A stretch of 64,000 nt of DNA from a virus. The position numbers and the translations under genes are program-made. This document shows positions 3,745 to 63,244 of this stretch, in pieces. Position 1 is the first letter of the stretch. Each line of letters opens with the position of its first letter. The notes under the pieces are model-generated. The model was given only the letters and a program-made list of their open reading frames with translations. It was not told the DNA's origin and ran no database searches. The DNA lies in IMG/VR virus record IMGVR_UViG_3300045004_000088, positions 128,001 to 192,000 of that record, one strand, 5' to 3'.

Positions 3745-3754
3745 TCGCGGGCTT
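3732..3754. terminator. palindromic hairpin spanning the stop codon (possible bidirectional terminator)
   Basis: AAGCCCGCGA / TCGCGGGCTT inverted repeat between convergent genes; no clear U-tract. Confidence 0.35.
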
Positions 3755-3759
3755 GGGGG

Positions 3760-4053
3760 TCAGTTCGAGGTCGCGGGAGCAGTGGTCTTCGGCGTGGCCT
3801 TCTTCTTGGCCGCAACCCGGCGTTGTGCGGCCGAGTCGTCGTAGTTGACTTCCAGCCCGTATGCGTCGGCGACCCGCCGCGCCACCGACTTGAGGGCCGA
3901 CAGCGTCTCGAACTTGGTGACGCCTTCCTTGTTGGCGAGCTTCGACTTGGTGGTGTACGGGGCGGTCAAACTGCCCTCGAAGCTCAGGGTTCCGGTCGTC
4001 TTGTCCTCGGAGGCAGTCACCTTGACCTCCAGAGTTGCCTTCTTCTTGCTCAT
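3760..4053 (-). CDS. lysine-rich small protein, possibly DNA-binding
   Basis: Met 12 of ORF 3760..4086 with AGGAAA RBS; Lys-rich termini. Confidence 0.5.
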   Translation of the reverse strand: MSKKKATLEVKVTASEDKTTGTLSFEGSLTAPYTTKSKLANKEGVTKFETLSALKSVARRVADAYGLEVNYDDSAAQRRVAAKKKATPKTTAPATSN

Positions 4054-6893: not shown

Positions 6894-8108
6894 ATGAGTA
6901 GCCTGATCGTTCAAGTGTGCCGAGTCGATAAAGTCGAAGAACATCCCAACGCAGAAAAACTTGCCCTTGCAACAATCAAGGGCTGGAAAACCTGTATTCG
7001 TAAAGACGAAACCGGCACCCAGTTCAAAGAAGGCGATCTCTGCGTCTTCTTCCCGCCCGACGCCGTTCTCCCCAAAGAACTGTCGGATCGGCTCGGCGTC
7101 ACCAAGTACCTCAAGATGTTGGGCAAAGGCACGGACGGCAAGACCCCCGAAGGGGGCCGTGTGGCCGTTTCGCGTCTGCGCGGGCATCCGAGCTACGGGT
7201 TGATCTCCAAACTCGACATCCTGCCAGTCAAGATGAATCCCGACTTCTCAATGGCTTGGAAGCCGGGCGATGACGTGGCGTCCACTCTGGGCATTACCAA
7301 GTGGGAGCCGCCGATGACCTGTACGGACGGGGACGCAGAAAAGCCGCACCCGGCGTTCCACCGCTACTTCACACTCGAAAACTACCGCAACTTCCCCGAC
7401 TTGATTCCCAAAGGCAAGCGGGTCGTTTTCACCGAAAAGATCCACGGGAAGAACTGCCGCGTCGGACTGATCAAGGACACTGGCCCGGACGGTGAAATGG
7501 TCTGGACGTGGATGGCCGGTTCCCACGACGTTCGCCGCAAAGAGTTCGTCACCCGCAAGCGGAAGATCCACGACCGCGAAACGGGCGAAACAAAAACCGA
7601 AGAATACCAAGACAAGTCGCAGTTTTGGCAGGCTCTGGACCGGCCGGGCGTGCGCGACATGATCGACACCATCAGCGGCGGAAAGACGAGCGGTGGCTGC
7701 GTCGATAACGTCGTCGTCTTCGGCGAGATCTTCGGCAGCGGCGTTCAGGACATGGCCTACGGGATGGCGAACGGGAACTGGGACTTCCGCGTGTTCGACA
7801 TCACCGTCAACGGCAAGTACATGAGCTTCGCCGAGAAGATGAACTGGTGCCACATCCACGATGTCAAGATGGTGCCGATCCTGTACGAAGGCCCGTTCAG
7901 CGAGGAAGAGGTCGAGAAGTTCGTGGGCGGCAACACTACCGTCTGCTCATCGGAAGAGAACGGCAAGTTCAAGGGCCGCGAAGGGATCGTGATCACCAGC
8001 GAAATCGAAACTCAAGCCGTCACCCCGGAAAAGGTGTTCGACCGGATGGCACTCAAGGCCATCAACTTCGAGTACCTCGAACGCGCCGGCGGCACGGAAC
8101 ATCACTAA
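6894..8108 (+). CDS. RNA ligase (Rnl2-like nucleotidyltransferase) with N-terminal tRNA-binding OB-fold (Myf/Trbp111-like) domain
   Basis: N-term VEEHPNAEKLALATIKGW matches the tRNA-binding domain. KIHGKN matches Rnl2 motif I (KIHGTN); EGIV motif IV; LKAI motif V. Confidence 0.7.
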   Translation: MSSLIVQVCRVDKVEEHPNAEKLALATIKGWKTCIRKDETGTQFKEGDLCVFFPPDAVLPKELSDRLGVTKYLKMLGKGTDGKTPEGGRVAVSRLRGHPSYGLISKLDILPVKMNPDFSMAWKPGDDVASTLGITKWEPPMTCTDGDAEKPHPAFHRYFTLENYRNFPDLIPKGKRVVFTEKIHGKNCRVGLIKDTGPDGEMVWTWMAGSHDVRRKEFVTRKRKIHDRETGETKTEEYQDKSQFWQALDRPGVRDMIDTISGGKTSGGCVDNVVVFGEIFGSGVQDMAYGMANGNWDFRVFDITVNGKYMSFAEKMNWCHIHDVKMVPILYEGPFSEEEVEKFVGGNTTVCSSEENGKFKGREGIVITSEIETQAVTPEKVFDRMALKAINFEYLERAGGTEHH

Positions 8109-58893: not shown

Positions 58894-58921
58894 GCGGTTG
58901 TGGCGAAACTGGTAGACGCGC
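58894..58921 (+). repeat. 28-nt duplicate of the 5' end of tRNA-Leu(CAG) (acceptor plus D-arm)
   Basis: gcggttgtggcgaaa[c/t]tggtagacgcgc matches 59459-59486 with one mismatch; diverges after the D-arm; no T-arm or 3' acceptor. Confidence 0.5.
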
Positions 58922-58969
58922 AAGATGGCAAATTCTGAGGTGTGATACTCTGCTAAGTGCGGAGGAAAC

Positions 58970-59458
58970 ATGCCAAAGAAAAGAAACTGGACCGACGAGC
59001 AATTGAAGGAAGCTGTTGCTACTTCGTTCTCGTACTCAGAAGTGTTGAGAAAACTGAAGTTGAAGTTCGCTGGCGGAACTCACGCGGCGATCAAGCAAAA
59101 AGTGAAGTGGTTGAAACTCAATGTTTCGCATTTCACAGGCAGTAGTTGGTGTCGAGGTGAGAAGTACCGACAAACGCTACTGAAAAGGAACACCCGAACA
59201 CTGGAAGAGATCTTGGTAAAAGACTCGACCTATCAATCGGGGGCGAAGCTGAAAAAGAGGCTGGTGACGGCGGGAATTTTGAAAGACATCTGCTGCCAGT
59301 GTGGGAATGAAGGTGTGTGGTGCGGTCAAGCTCTGACGTTACAGCTTGATCACAAGAATGGCGACCGGACTGATCACAGGTTAGAAAACCTCCGAGTGAT
59401 ATGTCCAAACTGTCATTCGCAGACACCTAACTTTGCTGGACGTAACGCGAAGAAGTAA
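58970..59458 (+). CDS. HNH homing endonuclease
   Basis: LQLDHKNGDRTDHRLENLRVICPNCH; GGAGGAAAC RBS; stop abuts the tRNA-Leu start. Confidence 0.65.
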   Translation: MPKKRNWTDEQLKEAVATSFSYSEVLRKLKLKFAGGTHAAIKQKVKWLKLNVSHFTGSSWCRGEKYRQTLLKRNTRTLEEILVKDSTYQSGAKLKKRLVTAGILKDICCQCGNEGVWCGQALTLQLDHKNGDRTDHRLENLRVICPNCHSQTPNFAGRNAKK

Positions 59459-59540
59459 GCGGTTGTGGCGAAATTGGTAGACGCGCGGTCTTCAGATGGC
59501 CGTCCCGCAAGGGGTGTGGGTTCGACTCCCACCAACCGCA
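59459..59540 (+). tRNA. tRNA-Leu(CAG), type II
   Basis: Acceptor GCGGTTG/CAACCGC. Anticodon stem CGGTC/GGCCG with loop TTCAGAT. Long variable arm. T-arm GTGGG-TTCGACT-CCCAC. No encoded CCA. Confidence 0.7.
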
Positions 59541-59607
59541 CTGTAAGACCCGGCAACGGGTGTTCTTTGACAACTGGGCGAGACAACAAGCGGTTCTCGG
59601 AGCAGCT

Positions 59608-59862
59608 ATGAAAAACGTTTGGTTGGAATTTTTGCAGTTGAAGACCGATTTCCCGCTCGGATCGTGGGTACAAATGACACTCGATCCTTTGGACGATTAC
59701 TTTGAATCGATCTGGGCTTCTGATATGATGGGGGTAGTGACGGGGTACAACATCATGCAGTCACTGGTGGTGGTGTACTTCGACAACAACGTCACGATGC
59801 AGTGCGGCCCGAAACTACTGAAGGTCGTTGAAAGCCCTTTGGTCCATGACTGGGACATGTGA
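59608..59862 (+). CDS. small hypothetical protein
   Basis: Met 17 of ORF 59560..59862 with GGAGCAGC RBS. Confidence 0.45.
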   Translation: MKNVWLEFLQLKTDFPLGSWVQMTLDPLDDYFESIWASDMMGVVTGYNIMQSLVVVYFDNNVTMQCGPKLLKVVESPLVHDWDM

Positions 59863-60092
59863 AAATGACGGACAAAGAAGAGATCGAGATCCTTCAGGCT
59901 CGTATCGATGAGTTGAAGGGGGTAAAGAGCGGCCCGCCGAAGTGTTTCCACTGTGGCGGGAGCGGCGAGGTCGCGTGGGAAGGAACCTGCTACTACTGCG
60001 TGGGGAGCGGTTACTGCTACCCACCGAACGATCCCAACCATTGGAGCAACAAGAAAGAAGAAAACGGACCTTATTACGATCAGGTCTGGTGA
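59859..60092 (+). CDS. small Cys-rich protein
   Basis: CFHCGGSG...CYYCVGSGYC; start overlaps the upstream stop. Confidence 0.45.
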   Translation: MKMTDKEEIEILQARIDELKGVKSGPPKCFHCGGSGEVAWEGTCYYCVGSGYCYPPNDPNHWSNKKEENGPYYDQVW

Positions 60093-60097
60093 GATAA

Positions 60098-60179
60098 GCC
60101 AAAGTGACGGAAATGGCAGACGTACTCCGCTCAAAACGGAGCGCCGCAAGGCGTGTGGGTTCGATTCCCACCTTTGGCA
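60098..60179 (+). tRNA. tRNA-Leu(CAA), type II
   Basis: Acceptor GCCAAAG/CTTTGGC. Anticodon stem CTCCG/CGGAG with loop CTCAAAA. Variable arm CGCCGCAAGGCGTGT. T-arm GTGGG-TTCGATT-CCCAC. Confidence 0.7.
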
Positions 60180-60185
60180 CTAACT

Positions 60186-60266
60186 GTACCGGCTGAACAT
60201 GGGCGAGTTCCCCTGGCTGTAACCCAGGTGCCTTCGGCTGTAGAGGTTCGACTCCTCTCCGGTACA
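60186..60266 (+). tRNA. tRNA-Tyr(GTA), type II
   Basis: Acceptor GTACCGG/CCGGTAC. D-stem GAA/TTC. Anticodon stem CCTGG/CCAGG with loop CTGTAAC. Variable arm contains a GCC-TTCG-GC tetraloop hairpin. T-arm AGAGG-TTCGACT-CCTCT. Confidence 0.65.
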
Positions 60267-60268
60267 CT

Positions 60269-60486
60269 GCATCCGCAACGGAATAGCCTTGATCGGTCTT
60301 GGGATAATTAACAAGGTGCTGCTCGATAAGTAGCGAAAGCTACCGCTTGCGGGCGTAAGGTCGGGGTGCAAGTATCGACCTCAAGACGGCGGATGCAATC
60401 GGGTGTCGATCCACACGGCAGACTGTAAATCTGCTGCCATTATCCTGTGTGGCGGTCGGCGATGGGTTCAACTCCTACGGCACCCA
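60269..60486 (+). ncRNA. unresolved structured RNA: 128-nt helix-closed domain with GNRA tetraloops plus a tRNA-like 3' part
   Basis: GCATCCGC (60269-76) pairs with GCGGATGC (60389-96) around GTAGC-GAAA-GCTAC and C-GTAA-G. The 3' part has GGGTGTC/GGCACCC acceptor-like ends and GCAGA-CTGTAAA-TCTGC, but no room for a D-arm. Confidence 0.3.
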
Positions 60487-60499
60487 CTGGAGACTCGCG

Positions 60500-61018
60500 A
60501 TGAGCGACATGATGGAACTTCTGGCGAAACGGTACGCCGAACCCGATCTGAACCCGTATCTTTTCGAGATCGGACAAAAGGTGAGGCTCCGCAAGGGCCG
60601 CTCGAACGACGGGCAGACGCCTCAACATTGGGACGGGGCAGTCGCAACAGTCGAAAGTCGATACTGCACCGGACTCCACAAGGAACACTGGTACAAGTTG
60701 AGACACTCGAACGGCCAACTGGCAGAGTTCTGCGAAGACGAGATCGACGCACGCTACGCGCGGCGGCGAGTCAACTTCAAAGAAGTTCTGGCCGAGGAGA
60801 ACCCGAAAGCCATCGTGTTTGACGGACTCGAAGAAGCCATGATCGGCGTCGGCGGTCAAACGACGCAGAGGCTCGCGGTCTACAGTGTCCGAAAGATCAT
60901 GGAACTGCTCAGGCAGAAACACGGCGACGAACAAGCGGCCCAAGAGTGGTTCGACTTCAACATCGCGACCCTCTGGGCCGGCGAGAATACTCCGATCTTG
61001 GTGTACGATGAAGTCTGA
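60500..61018 (+). CDS. hypothetical protein
   Basis: Met 18 of ORF 60449..61018 with GGAGACTCGCG RBS. Confidence 0.5.
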   Translation: MSDMMELLAKRYAEPDLNPYLFEIGQKVRLRKGRSNDGQTPQHWDGAVATVESRYCTGLHKEHWYKLRHSNGQLAEFCEDEIDARYARRRVNFKEVLAEENPKAIVFDGLEEAMIGVGGQTTQRLAVYSVRKIMELLRQKHGDEQAAQEWFDFNIATLWAGENTPILVYDEV

Positions 61019-61280
61019 AGACAATCTGCGGGTGGCTCCTCACGAGGAAACACCCAGGCAGAAGTATCTGTGTGACAACGCGAGACACCTGATCTGCGTG
61101 CCGTATTCCATTGATAATCTGCACAAGATGGCGGCAGATTTGGGAATCAAGAAGTGCTGGTTCCACAAGGACCATTACGACATTCCGAAGCGACGGATCG
61201 CCGAGATCACCGCGAAGTGCGAGGTCGTGGACAGCCGAGAAATCGTCAAGATCGTGAGGCCGAAGAACTCTGCGAAGTGA
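61008..61280 (+). CDS. hypothetical protein
   Basis: Met 42 of ORF 60885..61280; overlaps the upstream gene end by 11 nt. Confidence 0.45.
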   Translation: MKSEDNLRVAPHEETPRQKYLCDNARHLICVPYSIDNLHKMAADLGIKKCWFHKDHYDIPKRRIAEITAKCEVVDSREIVKIVRPKNSAK

Positions 61281-61289
61281 TAGAAATTT

Positions 61290-61371
61290 GGGTCTGCTAA
61301 CGCTGTGGGAAGCTACGTTGACTGTAAATCAGCCGCCTTCGGGATAAGAGGTTCGATTCCTCACAGACCCA
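61290..61371 (+). tRNA. tRNA-Tyr(GTA), second copy, slightly non-canonical D region
   Basis: Acceptor GGGTCTG/CAGACCC. Anticodon stem GTTGA/TCAGC with loop CTGTAAA. Variable arm has a CC-TTCG-GG hairpin. T-arm GAGG-TTCGATT-CCTC. Confidence 0.5.
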
Positions 61372-61377
61372 CTGAAT

Positions 61378-61452
61378 GCCTACCAAATGCTAATCTAGTG
61401 AAAGCTTAGGTTTGAAAAACCTAGTAGCCCGGAGCGTAACCGGGGGTAGGCA
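61378..61452 (+). tRNA. tRNA-like, possibly tRNA-Phe(GAA) with non-canonical T-loop
   Basis: Acceptor GCCTACC/GGTAGGC. D-stem GCT/AGC. Anticodon stem TAGGT/ACCTA with loop TTGAAAA. T-arm CCCGG-AGCGTAA-CCGGG lacks TTC. One to two extra nt at positions 8-10. Confidence 0.3.
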
Positions 61453-61471
61453 CTAGCCAGTATGCTCGTTC

Positions 61472-61542
61472 GGGATTACATGACAATTGGTTAAGTCGGG
61501 GAACTCAAATTCCCTATAGCTGGTTCAAATCCAGCGTATATC
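61472..61542 (+). tRNA. tRNA-like fragment or pseudo-tRNA (anticodon-like loop ACTCAAA, intact T-arm, no pairing acceptor)
   Basis: GGGGA-ACTCAAA-TTCCC hairpin plus canonical T-arm GCTGG-TTCAAAT-CCAGC. The 3' flank GTATATC does not complement the 5' GGGATTA. Confidence 0.25.
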
Positions 61543-61566
61543 TCGTGCAAATTTTGACTGGCAACT

Positions 61567-61639
61567 GCCGCGCAGGTGTAAAGGGTAGACACGCTTCCCT
61601 GAAAAGGAAGAGGACTCGGTTCGACTCCGAGGGGCGGCA
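61567..61639 (+). tRNA. tRNA-Phe(GAA)
   Basis: Acceptor GCCGCGC/GGGCGGC (one G-G mismatch). D-stem GTGT/ACAC. Anticodon stem CTTCC/GGAAG with loop CTGAAAA. T-arm CTCGG-TTCGACT-CCGAG. Confidence 0.65.
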
Positions 61640-61740
61640 CTTGAATAGTTTCGGCCTATGGCTGAAGAACGCCAAACCGTTGTCAGATAGACGCCAGAGG
61701 TGACTAGATTTTAGTAGGTGGTCCCTACTAGGAGTCAGTC

Positions 61741-61947
61741 ATGAACATCGACAACGTGAAGAGTGGCGTGAGCAAAGAGGAAGTCATGAGGCTGCTGCGT
61801 GCGGCCGGCATGCTCCAAGACTCGACGCCGGTGAAGCTGCAACAGATGCGGGCGGTTCGCGTGTCGCGGCCGGAACCCCGGCCCGAACACGAAGAACTCG
61901 GCATGAGCCACAGCGAGTGGTTCCGCCGCTACGTCAGCGACTGGTAA
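61741..61947 (+). CDS. small hypothetical protein
   Basis: GGAG RBS downstream of a TAGTAGG/CCTACTA hairpin. Confidence 0.45.
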   Translation: MNIDNVKSGVSKEEVMRLLRAAGMLQDSTPVKLQQMRAVRVSRPEPRPEHEELGMSHSEWFRRYVSDW

Positions 61948-62178
61948 TCACTTCCCGGCAACGAGCTTGCGGAGGTCGCTGGACGACTTAGACGGGTTAC
62001 GGATGATTTCTTTCACCAGTTCCTCGCCTTTGGAACTGGTGATCTTCGACCAGACCTTTTCGAGCGTGGTGCGGTTGTACTTCTTGACCAGCTTCTTCAG
62101 CCCGTCGATAAAGTCCTCGACGGCTTCGATGTCGCTGCTGCCCGTACCCGACTCGACAAATTGACGAAACGATTGCAT
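61948..62178 (-). CDS. small hypothetical protein
   Basis: 76-aa ORF with GGAGGG RBS; convergent with 61741..61947. Confidence 0.5.
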   Translation of the reverse strand: MQSFRQFVESGTGSSDIEAVEDFIDGLKKLVKKYNRTTLEKVWSKITSSKGEELVKEIIRNPSKSSSDLRKLVAGK

Positions 62179-62193
62179 AGACCCTCCAGTCTA

Positions 62194-62237
62194 TGTATCG
62201 ACTCGGAAGGAAAATATGTATCGACTCGGAAGGAAAA
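62194..62237 (+). repeat. tandem direct repeat 2 x tgtatcgactcggaaggaaaa (period 23); second copy forms the 5' end of tRNA-Ser(GGA)
   Basis: Exact duplication, visible in the sequence. Confidence 0.5.
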
Positions 62238-62313
62238 CCGGATGGGTGTCCGGCATCGCCTGGAAAGTGATTGGTGCCTTAAACGGCATGGGGATCGATA
62301 CCTCTTCCTTCCG
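62228..62313 (+). tRNA. tRNA-Ser(GGA), type II, non-canonical (T-loop ATCGATA, 4-bp T-stem)
   Basis: Acceptor GGAAGGA/TCCTTCC (7/7). D-arm CCGG-ATGGGTGT-CCGG. Anticodon stem ATCGC/GTGAT with loop CTGGAAA. Variable hairpin GTGCC-TTAAAC-GGCAT. T-arm GGGG-ATCGATA-CCTC. Confidence 0.5.
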
Positions 62314-62416
62314 CTATGTGTGACTGCAAAATGTGTCGGGCGCGGAAACGCAAAAAGCTCATCGACACGCTCCATTCAAAAGGCGTCATCCTCGTACACA
62401 GGGGCGAAGACTTTCT

Positions 62417-62728
62417 ATGCCAAACAAGTTCGAGGGCCGCTGGCGTTGGTGCAACCACTGCCAGTGCGCGAGAATCCGATGCTTCAAGTGCGGCAACATC
62501 TCGTGTAGCGGCGGCGGATGCGTCGAGTGCCACGACGAATTCACCGAAGCGATCAGAATGAGCGGCACGGGCGAACACCCTAGCAAAGAAGAACTCCTCG
62601 CCGACACCGAAGGCATTAGAATTGATGCCGAGTGGGGCGAAAAGGTATGGGACGCATGGTCGAGTACACAATCAAAAAAGGCAGCAAGCACCAGAACAGA
62701 CGGTGCGGCTACTGCGACGGGCGAATGA
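62417..62728 (+). CDS. Cys-rich small protein (uncertain; overlapping alternative ORFs)
   Basis: Met 29 of ORF 62333..62728; CNHCQCARIRCFKCGNISCSGGGCVEC; tail low-complexity. Confidence 0.35.
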   Translation: MPNKFEGRWRWCNHCQCARIRCFKCGNISCSGGGCVECHDEFTEAIRMSGTGEHPSKEELLADTEGIRIDAEWGEKVWDAWSSTQSKKAASTRTDGAATATGE

Positions 62729-62871
62729 CGCCCGGCCGCAAGTTCGTACTCGACCCGGAACGGTACGAAAACCAACTGCCAATGATCTTCCACCCGCAGT
62801 GCCGCGAAGCGTGGGTGAAGCGTGGCAAACAACCGCTGTGCCGAGGTAACTGTGACACTGTACATGCTTGA
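62656..62871 (+). CDS. small Cys-containing hypothetical protein
   Basis: Internal Met of ORF 62632..62871; CGYCDG...CREAW...CRGNC. Confidence 0.4.
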   Translation: MVEYTIKKGSKHQNRRCGYCDGRMTPGRKFVLDPERYENQLPMIFHPQCREAWVKRGKQPLCRGNCDTVHA

Positions 62872-63052
62872 GTGGTACAACGGCCTCGAATACGCAGACG
62901 CCGAGACGACACTGTTGGGCGTTTATCGAAGTGAAGAAACGCGATCCGAGGCCGAACAACGGTATCGCGAGTCGGAGGAACGTTGGCCCTTCACTAGCAA
63001 GGAAGGGAAGTTCGTGAAGTGGGAGATCCAGTTGGACAAGGATCTGGTGTGA
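62864..63052 (+). CDS. small hypothetical protein
   Basis: Met 15 of ORF 62822..63052; ATGCTTGA overlap with the upstream stop. Confidence 0.4.
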   Translation: MLEWYNGLEYADAETTLLGVYRSEETRSEAEQRYRESEERWPFTSKEGKFVKWEIQLDKDLV

Positions 63053-63055
63053 TAC

Positions 63056-63140
63056 GGAAGGGACTGTGAGTGGCTACACGACTTTGTTTGCTAAACAAAG
63101 ATACGGCAACGTATTGCGGGTTCGACGCCCGCTCCTTCCG
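63056..63140 (+). tRNA. tRNA-Ser(GCT), type II, with extended 6-bp anticodon stem
   Basis: Acceptor GGAAGGG/TCCTTCC. D-stem TGTG/CACG. Anticodon stem CTTTGT/ACAAAG with loop TTGCTAA. Variable hairpin ATACG-GCAA-CGTAT. T-arm GCGGG-TTCGACG-CCCGC. Confidence 0.6.
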
Positions 63141-63143
63141 CTC

Positions 63144-63233
63144 GGCTCTGTGCGCTAAATGGTAAAGCGGCAAGTTTCAAAAACTTGTGTCTCCCCGCGT
63201 GGGAAATTATCGGTTCGAGTCCGATCAGAGCCA
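63144..63233 (+). tRNA. tRNA-Leu(CAA), second copy, type II
   Basis: Acceptor GGCTCTG/CAGAGCC. D-stem CGC/GCG. Anticodon stem CAAGT/ACTTG with loop TTCAAAA. 21-nt variable arm. T-arm ATCGG-TTCGAGT-CCGAT. Confidence 0.65.
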
Positions 63234-63244
63234 CTTGAATCTTT

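Follow-up and report, generated by a model that had tools for sequence, protein, structure and literature searches.

The window analysed here is a stretch of 64,000 nucleotides (nt) of the IMG/VR virus record IMGVR_UViG_3300045004_000088 (positions 128,001 to 192,000), in which six tRNA genes were called by ARAGORN. One of them is a canonical class II tRNA-Tyr, and directly behind it lie a 128-nt segment and an 86-nt piece (Table 1), for which a preliminary description of this DNA had considered, among other possibilities, a single structured RNA of 218 nt. The main result of the present study concerns the 86-nt piece, located at 60401-60486 on the + strand. As judged from its sequence and those of its relatives, this piece is probably a functional phage tRNA-Tyr(GUA) gene belonging to a structural type that has not been described.

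Table 1. Features identified between positions 60186 and 60486 of the window.
Feature	Position	Strand	Observations
Canonical class II tRNA-Tyr(GUA/GTA)	60186-60267	+	ARAGORN; Rfam tRNA 39.3 bits with the region scanned alone; separate from the 86-nt element
128-nt spacer with GAAA hairpin (60330-60343)	60269-60396	+	Not conserved; no Rfam match; minimum free energy z = -1.5
Putative whole non-cloverleaf tRNA-Tyr(GUA) gene, 86 nt	60401-60486	+	Covariance model R1, 80 bits, E 1e-20; CCA not encoded, CTG next
Acceptor stem, 5' strand GGGTGTCG	60401-60408	+	8 base pairs (bp) with 60478-60485 (CGGCACCC); all 8 pairs covary
Linker, 2 nt	60409-60410	+	
Helix H, 5' strand CCACAC, running straight into the anticodon stem	60411-60416	+	Pairs with 60447-60452
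Anticodon arm: G.U pair (60417 with 60435, like 26.44), 5-bp stem, loop CTGTAAA (60423-60429), anticodon GTA (60425-60427)	60417-60435	+	6/6 pairs covary
Helix V, 5' strand GCC, directly 3' of the anticodon arm	60436-60438	+	Pairs with 60458-60460
Single-stranded linker L2, ATTATCCT	60439-60446	+	A/U-rich family-wide (column composition)
Helix H, 3' strand GTGTGG, within the 'variable' region	60447-60452	+	Covariation, RNAalifold
Conserved Y-G-G (CGG here), directly 3' of the helix H strand	60453-60455	+	Candidate equivalent of D-loop 16/17-G18-G19
Helix V, 3' strand GGC, then GA (60461-60462)	60458-60460	+	Covariation
T arm: 4-bp stem TGGG/CCTA, loop TTCAACT (60467-60473)	60463-60477	+	95% of cells paired
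Discriminator A	60486	+	

The tRNA-like ends and the Tyr-type anticodon hairpin noticed in the preliminary description were both confirmed, as the ends of the 86-nt piece are complementary and its anticodon hairpin reads GCAGA-CTGTAAA-TCTGC. No D-arm hairpin is present between the acceptor and anticodon stems; six of the residues found there pair instead with 60447-60452, giving a helix designated H. The idea of a 'D-armless tRNA', also put forward earlier, was therefore right in that the D hairpin is missing from a conserved gene of tRNA-Tyr type, but it did not foresee that a D-stem-like helix of 6 bp is still formed with the variable region. A second helix, V, starts directly after the anticodon arm, is 3-4 bp long across the family and has its 'loop' tied into helix H. 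Helices H and V interleave and the resulting fold is a pseudoknot, not a cloverleaf. In addition, the acceptor/T branch is built as 8+4, not as the canonical 7+5.

Relatives were searched with a pattern combining the Tyr anticodon loop CTGTAAA with a downstream CGA-N-GGGTTCRANTCC lying farther away than a normal tRNA would allow. This pattern was run on three collections. IMG/VR yielded 11 loci, all of them with the same layout; 6 of the 11 matches in bacterial and archaeal genomes (one genome per species) and 26 of the 30 in metagenome contigs were true members. A covariance model (R1) was built on 11 of the members, and it gave scores of 65-95 bits to members and of at most 32 bits to canonical tRNAs. 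With R1, a second copy lying outside the search pattern was recovered in contig L086 (1294-1379), and the member of L105 was recovered by BLAST, without the anticodon pattern. When two members were compared by BLAST with plasmids and phages, the sole match was in the cultured Rhizobium phage RHph_N3_2 (MN988526.1, 39882-39970; 71.6 bits), whose copy is unannotated in GenBank and receives no ARAGORN call. Altogether, the family comprises 35 distinct sequences plus that of RHph_N3_2, with lengths of 85-89 nt and a pairwise identity whose median is 64% and whose minimum is 48%. The 31 loci obtained with the 22-nt anticodon hairpin alone were without exception ordinary cloverleaf tRNA-Tyr genes, and none was a homologue. 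R1 was also used to look for members with other anticodons in phage tRNA regions amounting to about 0.7 Mb, and nothing scored between 32 and 65 bits.

Most members lie on phage or phage-like contigs, and the contigs carrying them are mostly fragments. Two copies have ordinary chromosomal genes as neighbours, and the 8 kb covered around each contained no phage genes. One is on a Planctomycetaceae chromosome (L052), between a sulfate permease and a peptidase on one side and a CheW-MCP-CheR cluster on the other. The second, on a 1.6-Mb Rhizobiaceae contig (L051), has the genes for carbamoyl-phosphate synthase and cardiolipin synthase at one end and those for a HAD hydrolase and a histidine kinase at its opposite end.

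The fold is carried by covariation, a check that gave different answers for both parts of the locus: the 86 nt covary over 35 homologues and the 128 nt are not conserved in relatives. In alignment A4, which was model-based and fitted to the nested helices but not to helix V, 96.6% of 976 cells held standard pairs, and compensatory double changes occurred in 25 of the 28 pairs. None of 500 column shuffles reached these values, and pairing amounted to 43-53% when the partners were slid by 1-3 columns. Every one of the six pairs of helix H showed double changes, with 96.7% of its cells paired. Since helix V is absent from the model structure, its covariation constitutes a test independent of the alignment. 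Its middle pair was CG in 11 sequences, GC in 11, UA in 9, AU in 3 and UG in 1, being unpaired in none of the 35. The 8+4 split is likewise fixed by the eighth acceptor pair, formed in 35/35 sequences with five pair types (GC 20, UG 7, AU 4, CG 2, UA 2; unpaired 0/35). A hand alignment of 11 sequences gave the same covariation picture, and RNAalifold predicted de novo four nested helices, helix H included. Several positions outside the search pattern were also conserved, namely the G at the first position of helix V (35/35), the Y-G-G after helix H (33, 32 and 35 of 35, respectively), the CC/GG at the top of helix H and the U before helix V (30/35).

Several features relate these genes to tRNA-Tyr. 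The identity set of bacterial tRNA-Tyr consists of A73, G34-U35-A36 and a long variable arm. The anticodon was GUA in every member, including both of those found free of the anticodon pattern (L086 1294-1379 and L105). The anticodon loop was CUGUAAA in 34/35; the exception, with CUGUAAC, is a member recovered independently of the search pattern, and U33 and A37 are kept. The T-loop consensus, TTCRANT, was kept also in the two members found without the pattern, and the discriminator was A in 34/35. CCA directly follows the discriminator in 15 of the 35 members, versus about 0.5 expected by chance, and is encoded neither in the window copy nor in its neighbours. The members are located inside tRNA arrays and are spaced like the neighbouring genes. 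In L084, the 29 called tRNAs represent 19 amino acids, Tyr alone being absent, and the member is placed between tRNA-Gln and tRNA-Leu. The member of L048 lies within a 27-tRNA array without a called Tyr, and that of L044/L058 is the sole Tyr-type gene of an otherwise broad array. Non-cloverleaf and canonical tRNA-Tyr genes stand side by side in the window, L036, L041, L060 and L087, and two of each alternate in L086.

The tools in common use did not recognize the gene. No clean canonical tRNA call was obtained for 60401-60486, as ARAGORN gave none and the Rfam tRNA model (RF00005) had no match even at E<=10. The best Rfam match of the 86-nt piece was tRNA-Sec (RF01852), with 22.5 bits versus a gathering score of 47, and the anticodon is GUA, not UCA. 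The identities considered and rejected were those of Y RNA/YrlA, signal recognition particle RNA, group I intron, transfer-messenger RNA (tmRNA) and tRNA-Sec, all with no match or with sub-threshold matches only; the tmRNA had been among the models suggested for this locus, and neither ARAGORN nor Rfam located one in the window. The member of L065 (1319-1415, +) was called by ARAGORN as a 97-nt tRNA-Tyr starting 10 nt upstream of the real 5' end. On account of this call, some members may carry wrong ends and a forced cloverleaf in annotations.

The manner in which such an RNA could work may be outlined from its layout. The parts contacted by the translation machinery are kept, namely the 12-bp acceptor/T branch (8+4), the TTCRANT T loop, the discriminator A and a standard anticodon arm. 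The core is rewired: after the 2-nt linker, a 6-nt strand enters the anticodon stem with its partner strand in the variable region, and helix V joins the nucleotides after the anticodon arm to those before the T stem, crossing helix H. By layer counting, the 6 bp of helix H stacked on the G.U pair and on the 5-bp anticodon stem would give 12 layers. A normal tRNA also has 12 layers, contributed by five anticodon-stem pairs, 26.44, four D-stem pairs, 8-14 and 15-48. The 3' strand of helix H together with Y-G-G would then correspond to positions 10-15, 16/17, G18 and G19, and its GG could dock on the T loop as in the normal elbow. Helix V, for its part, appears to start and end where the class II variable arm does. 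In other words, the segment formed by the 5' strand of the D stem plus GG would have been moved into the variable loop, the three-dimensional parts being kept. The RNA could still reach the L shape, because its 12 layers would equal those of a normal tRNA and the Y-G-G would be placed where G18 and G19 meet the T loop. The gene would presumably be transcribed with the neighbouring tRNAs and its product cut by RNase P and 3' nucleases, CCA being added afterwards. Charging by the host tyrosyl-tRNA synthetase would be expected, given that the gene retains A73, G34-U35-A36 and a helix next to the anticodon stem, and the charged RNA could be used by EF-Tu, through the 12-bp branch, for reading UAY codons.

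A speculative advantage of this architecture would be resistance to nucleases that cut the variable arm, of the Septu or Retron-Eco7 PtuAB type. Phages are stopped by Septu and Retron-Eco7 PtuAB through cleavage of tRNA-Tyr in its variable arm; the tRNA-Tyr of phage T5 is resistant owing to its divergent variable loop, and T6 escapes through amplification of the gene for its tRNA-Tyr (PMC13096335). It is plausible that a tRNA-Tyr with its variable region locked in a pseudoknot is an escape form from such nucleases. The window also encodes an RNA ligase (PF09414, phrog_968; 6894-8108, +) near a Thg1-like tRNA 5'-end nucleotidyltransferase (PF04446; 8993-10015, +), and the closeness of both genes suggests that this phage repairs damaged tRNAs.

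Some considerations weigh against the interpretation outlined above. Only 0-2 nt separate Y-G-G from helix V, a distance which is maybe too short for Y-G-G to reach the T loop. The anticodon loop, CGA and most of the T arm were prescribed by the pattern used in the three scans; as a consequence, the Tyr-only anticodon and the T-loop invariance were partly imposed, and only two members (the second copy of L086 and that of L105) are free of this bias. Moreover, the arrays apparently lacking another Tyr gene are short contigs or 8-kb excerpts. Finally, several contigs, including the window, also carry a canonical tRNA-Tyr, so that the non-cloverleaf copy could be a decoy and not a decoder.

According to this last possibility, the RNA would be a tRNA-Tyr mimic acting outside translation, as a decoy or sponge for a host nuclease directed against tRNA-Tyr or for another tRNA-Tyr-binding factor, thereby shielding the real tRNA-Tyr pool. 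The canonical genes found beside the copies of the window, L036, L041, L060, L086 and L087 are in line with it, and so is the investment of the window phage in tRNA repair represented by the RNA ligase and the Thg1-like enzyme. Besides, an overexpressed phage tRNA-Tyr partly protects the host tRNA-Tyr from Septu, and the authors of that work discuss a role as decoy or as supplement (PMC13096335). A decoy would not, however, be expected as the only Tyr-type gene of arrays as broad as those of L084, L048 and L044/L058, nor to keep the features of a charged tRNA (A73, U33, A37, the 12-bp acceptor/T branch and, in 15/35 members, an encoded CCA). It would also have no obvious use among the ordinary chromosomal genes of L051 and L052. 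All in all, we consider the decoy explanation unlikely, and a tRNA-Tyr employed in translation remains the preferred reading of the 86-nt gene.

The 128-nt segment was studied separately. Its closing helix, GCATCCGC (60269-60276) with GCGGATGC (60389-60396), had been described as having 8 bp and actually extends to 9 bp (60268-60276 with 60389-60397). By our own estimate, chance alone would produce about 30 perfect inverted repeats of 9 bp within 140 nt in a sequence of 64 kb. The GTAGC-GAAA-GCTAC hairpin is present as described, and the reported C-GTAA-G tetraloop turned out to be practically stemless. The segment is separated from the 86-nt piece by AATC. Its minimum free energy was -43.3 kcal/mol, versus -38.0 +/- 3.5 for shuffled sequences (z = -1.5), and 16 of 200 shuffles folded equally well. 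When compared with 4227 Rfam families at E<=10, 60269-60396 matched no group I intron, ribozyme or other family. Without a fold signal or an Rfam match, the likeness to a group I intron noted earlier, and with it the suggestions of a ribozyme, an intron or an intron remnant, find no support for these 128 nt. Scans for promoters and terminators at 58900-62000 gave none in the spacer and otherwise a background level.

The window phage is a large myovirus encoding a tail sheath, ribonucleotide reductase and SbcC, and it is only distantly related to known phages, as its best tail-sheath matches among GenBank phages reached only about 26-36% identity. BLAST of the region against 50,697 GenBank phages gave no match. 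The closest relative was contig L033, reached through a downstream protein with 96% amino-acid identity; the loci obtained in the other searches with neighbouring proteins (L001, L034, L035) had no tRNA-like element, and only L033 was informative. The window and L033 share 85-92% identity on both sides of the interval 60269-60400. L033 keeps the upstream tRNA-Tyr (60186-60267), with compensatory changes in its anticodon stem, and has the 86 nt 100% identical (864-949), the downstream flank being 90% identical and the upstream spacer unrelated. In place of 60269-60400, L033 contains about 256 nt with an open reading frame (ORF) of 79 amino acids (624-863, +) and its ribosome-binding site. Both spacers could not be aligned beyond chance, the local score being reached by 274 of 500 shuffles. 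The case of the 79-amino-acid ORF illustrates that the spacers between tRNAs in this phage group exchange their content while the tRNA genes stay conserved.

Two origins considered for the 128-nt piece were rejected. A deletion derivative of the L033 ORF region found no support, since local and global alignments were no better than those of shuffles, and neither did a mobile element with terminal inverted repeats and target duplication, since no second copy was found anywhere and there is no duplication. Nothing similar was found in the 100 or more fetched loci, and an exact 40-mer of the piece is absent from IMG/VR. As the segment lacks a fold signal and an Rfam match, is replaced in L033, has no similar locus and is closed by a helix of chance level, we read it as a lineage-specific variable spacer between two tRNA genes and not part of the 86-nt RNA. 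It may have a local role, for instance in precursor processing.

These data also bear on the proposal that the whole 218 nt (60269-60486) form one structured RNA, that is, an intron-containing tRNA, a small ribozyme or a regulatory RNA linked to a tRNA. What speaks for it is the arrangement itself, with a 9-bp helix bracketing the spacer from 1 nt after the tRNA-Tyr to 3 nt before the tRNA-like piece, together with the GNRA hairpin and a 7-nt complementarity between 60302-60308 and 60439-60445. Nevertheless, a 7-nt match is at chance level for a region of 400 nt, and L033 keeps the 86 nt unchanged although an unrelated, ORF-bearing sequence replaces the 128 nt. The family as a whole agrees with this, as no other member has an upstream domain like the 128 nt; their 5' flanks are unrelated and the 86-nt unit stands alone among tRNA genes. 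With the z value of -1.5 and the lack of Rfam matches and of homologues in the fetched loci, a single 218-nt RNA is very improbable. The remaining explanation, a decaying tRNA-Tyr pseudogene or a functionless recombination or integration fragment, would account for the rejection of the piece by standard tRNA finders and for the spacers of the cluster being hot spots of insertion and deletion, but it is practically discarded because 35 sequences with identities down to 48% keep all five helices by compensatory changes, which pseudogenes do not show, and because the window copy equals that of L033 at 100% while the flanks diverge.

Other deviant tRNA-like genes were observed in these arrays. The tRNA cluster of the window (59459-63234), with small ORFs and HNH-type genes scattered between its tRNAs, and those of L038, L060, L077 and L087 contain hardly anything but class II tRNAs (Leu, Ser, Tyr), which are often present in multiple copies and in some cases accompanied by Phe. 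At 61377-61453 (+) the window holds a representative of a second tRNA-like family, called by neither ARAGORN nor Rfam, with anticodon GAA (Phe) and a fold z of -3.8. In this family the acceptor has 7 bp, the D region contains a conserved CUAGUG, the anticodon arm is normal and the loop of the T arm (CCCGG-AGCGUAA-CCGGG) lacks the usual UUC. It was also present in L033 (approximately 2121-2200), where the acceptor and anticodon stems show compensatory changes, in L070 (approximately 128-205), and in L088, L091, L092, L094-L097 and L101-L103. The anticodons of its IMG/VR copies are GAA, CAU, UGG and GCC.

A third Tyr(GUA) tRNA-like gene, located at 61290-61371 (+), has no ARAGORN call; its acceptor is GGGTCTG/CAGACCC, its T stem has 4 bp and its D region is irregular. 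It was discarded as a member of the non-cloverleaf family, given that it scored only 21.7 bits with R1, and L033 lacks it, having a different, longer insert there. Another uncalled element, at 61456-61548 (+), is 100% identical in L033. It has a T arm GCUGG-UUCAAAU-CCAGC, a D-arm-like GAC-AAUUGGUUAA-GUC, a variable region of only 3 nt, a bulged acceptor stem and an anticodon hairpin GGGGAA-CUCAAA-UUCCCU with a loop of 6 or 8 nt, in which CAA would read Leu. In addition, a long variable arm is missing from the tRNA-Leu of L045 (1407-1481, -) and from many others called as tRNA-Leu, with 74-77 nt, in L040, L042, L045, L060, L067 and L068. Such an absence is unusual in bacterial-type tRNA-Leu, and these short-armed genes share arrays with the non-cloverleaf tRNA-Tyr. 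On the Rhizobiaceae chromosome of L051 (approximately 3745-3840, -), an uncalled tRNA-Ser(UGA)-like gene lies between the non-cloverleaf tRNA-Tyr and tRNA-Ser(GCU); its acceptor stem measures 9 bp, CCA is encoded, and the gene may represent an allo-tRNA. Finally, a dense 13-tRNA array of L080, which also contains a non-cloverleaf tRNA-Tyr, carries a tmRNA gene called by ARAGORN (1808-2206, -; tag ADDMHIVKVDFGARAAVSLAA).

Comparison of the family with known systems revealed partial similarities to several of them. With the canonical class II tRNA-Tyr(GUA) of bacteria and phages it shares the CUGUAAA loop, G1-C72 in most members, A73, the TTCRANT T loop, a paired element immediately 3' of the anticodon stem, at the point where the long variable arm begins, the location in arrays and the frequently encoded CCA. 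It differs from that tRNA in the absence of the D hairpin, in the 8+4 instead of 7+5 branch, in the D-stem-like partner placed in the variable region, in the pseudoknot and in being missed by ARAGORN and RF00005. Structurally, the family is closest to (8/4) allo-tRNAs, (8/4) tRNA-Ser and tRNA-His and tRNA-Sec, in which the 8+4 branch, the 6-bp anticodon stem, the 6-bp D-type helix and the long variable region are also found. The (8/4) tRNAs are known from bacteria and from phage tRNA clusters, those of alpha-proteobacterial phages included, no Tyr species being reported among them (Mukai et al. 2017, PMC5389517). Unlike the present family, all of these RNAs fold as cloverleaves and possess a D hairpin, which in allo-tRNAs and tRNA-Sec has a 6-bp stem and a tetraloop and is combined with a variable arm in hairpin form, whereas here helices H and V interlock.

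The lack of a D hairpin and the short connector to an extended anticodon arm are shared with the D-arm-less mitochondrial tRNA-Ser(AGY/UCU) and with the engineered Escherichia coli 'mini HisT' (PMC11551756), and these RNAs provide precedents for use by aminoacyl-tRNA synthetases, EF-Tu and the ribosome. However, they lose the arm and adopt a Y or boomerang shape, and in the mitochondrial D-armless tRNAs the arm is lost without replacement (PMC7609411). In contrast, the family described here has a covarying 6-bp helix, a pseudoknot, the Y-G-G and a length of 85-89 nt. Finally, phage T5 tRNA-Tyr, which resists Retron-Eco7 and Septu PtuAB (PMC11555353, PMC13096335), is also encoded by a phage in a tRNA-rich region and has a variable region unlike that of its host. 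Both could share the same selective pressure, but T5 tRNA-Tyr is a normal cloverleaf.

No description of this fold was found in full-text searches of the freely available literature, and it is absent from Rfam 15. On these grounds, we regard the family as a structural variant of tRNA not described before. Taking all the data together, we lean towards a wider proposal, which we hold with less confidence than the assignment of the 86-nt gene. According to it, this RNA would be a natural, translationally active, non-cloverleaf elongator tRNA-Tyr whose D stem is re-formed through a pseudoknot that involves the variable region. It would be spread among phages, RHph_N3_2 included, serve as the sole Tyr adaptor in some large arrays and be chromosomal in some Planctomycetes and Rhizobiaceae, and it would maybe have been selected for escape from immune nucleases that cut tRNA-Tyr. 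At least one further deviant tRNA family, with T loop AGCGUAA and several anticodons, would accompany it in the same clusters.

According to a 2024 paper (PMC11551756), every bacterial tRNA known so far is a cloverleaf, and armless tRNAs occur naturally in mitochondria alone. If the proposal is true, phages and bacteria would supply, with this family, a natural exception to the cloverleaf-only view of bacterial tRNAs. It would also mean that standard tRNA finders miss real tRNA genes, so that arrays and genomes can seem to lack tRNA-Tyr. For structural biology the fold would represent a new route to the L-shaped adaptor, and for synthetic biology it would possibly be an orthogonal scaffold. 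The cultured pair formed by RHph_N3_2 and Rhizobium phaseoli N3_2 makes the claim directly testable, and the family adds a testable case to the conflict between phages and their hosts over the cleavage of tRNA-Tyr.

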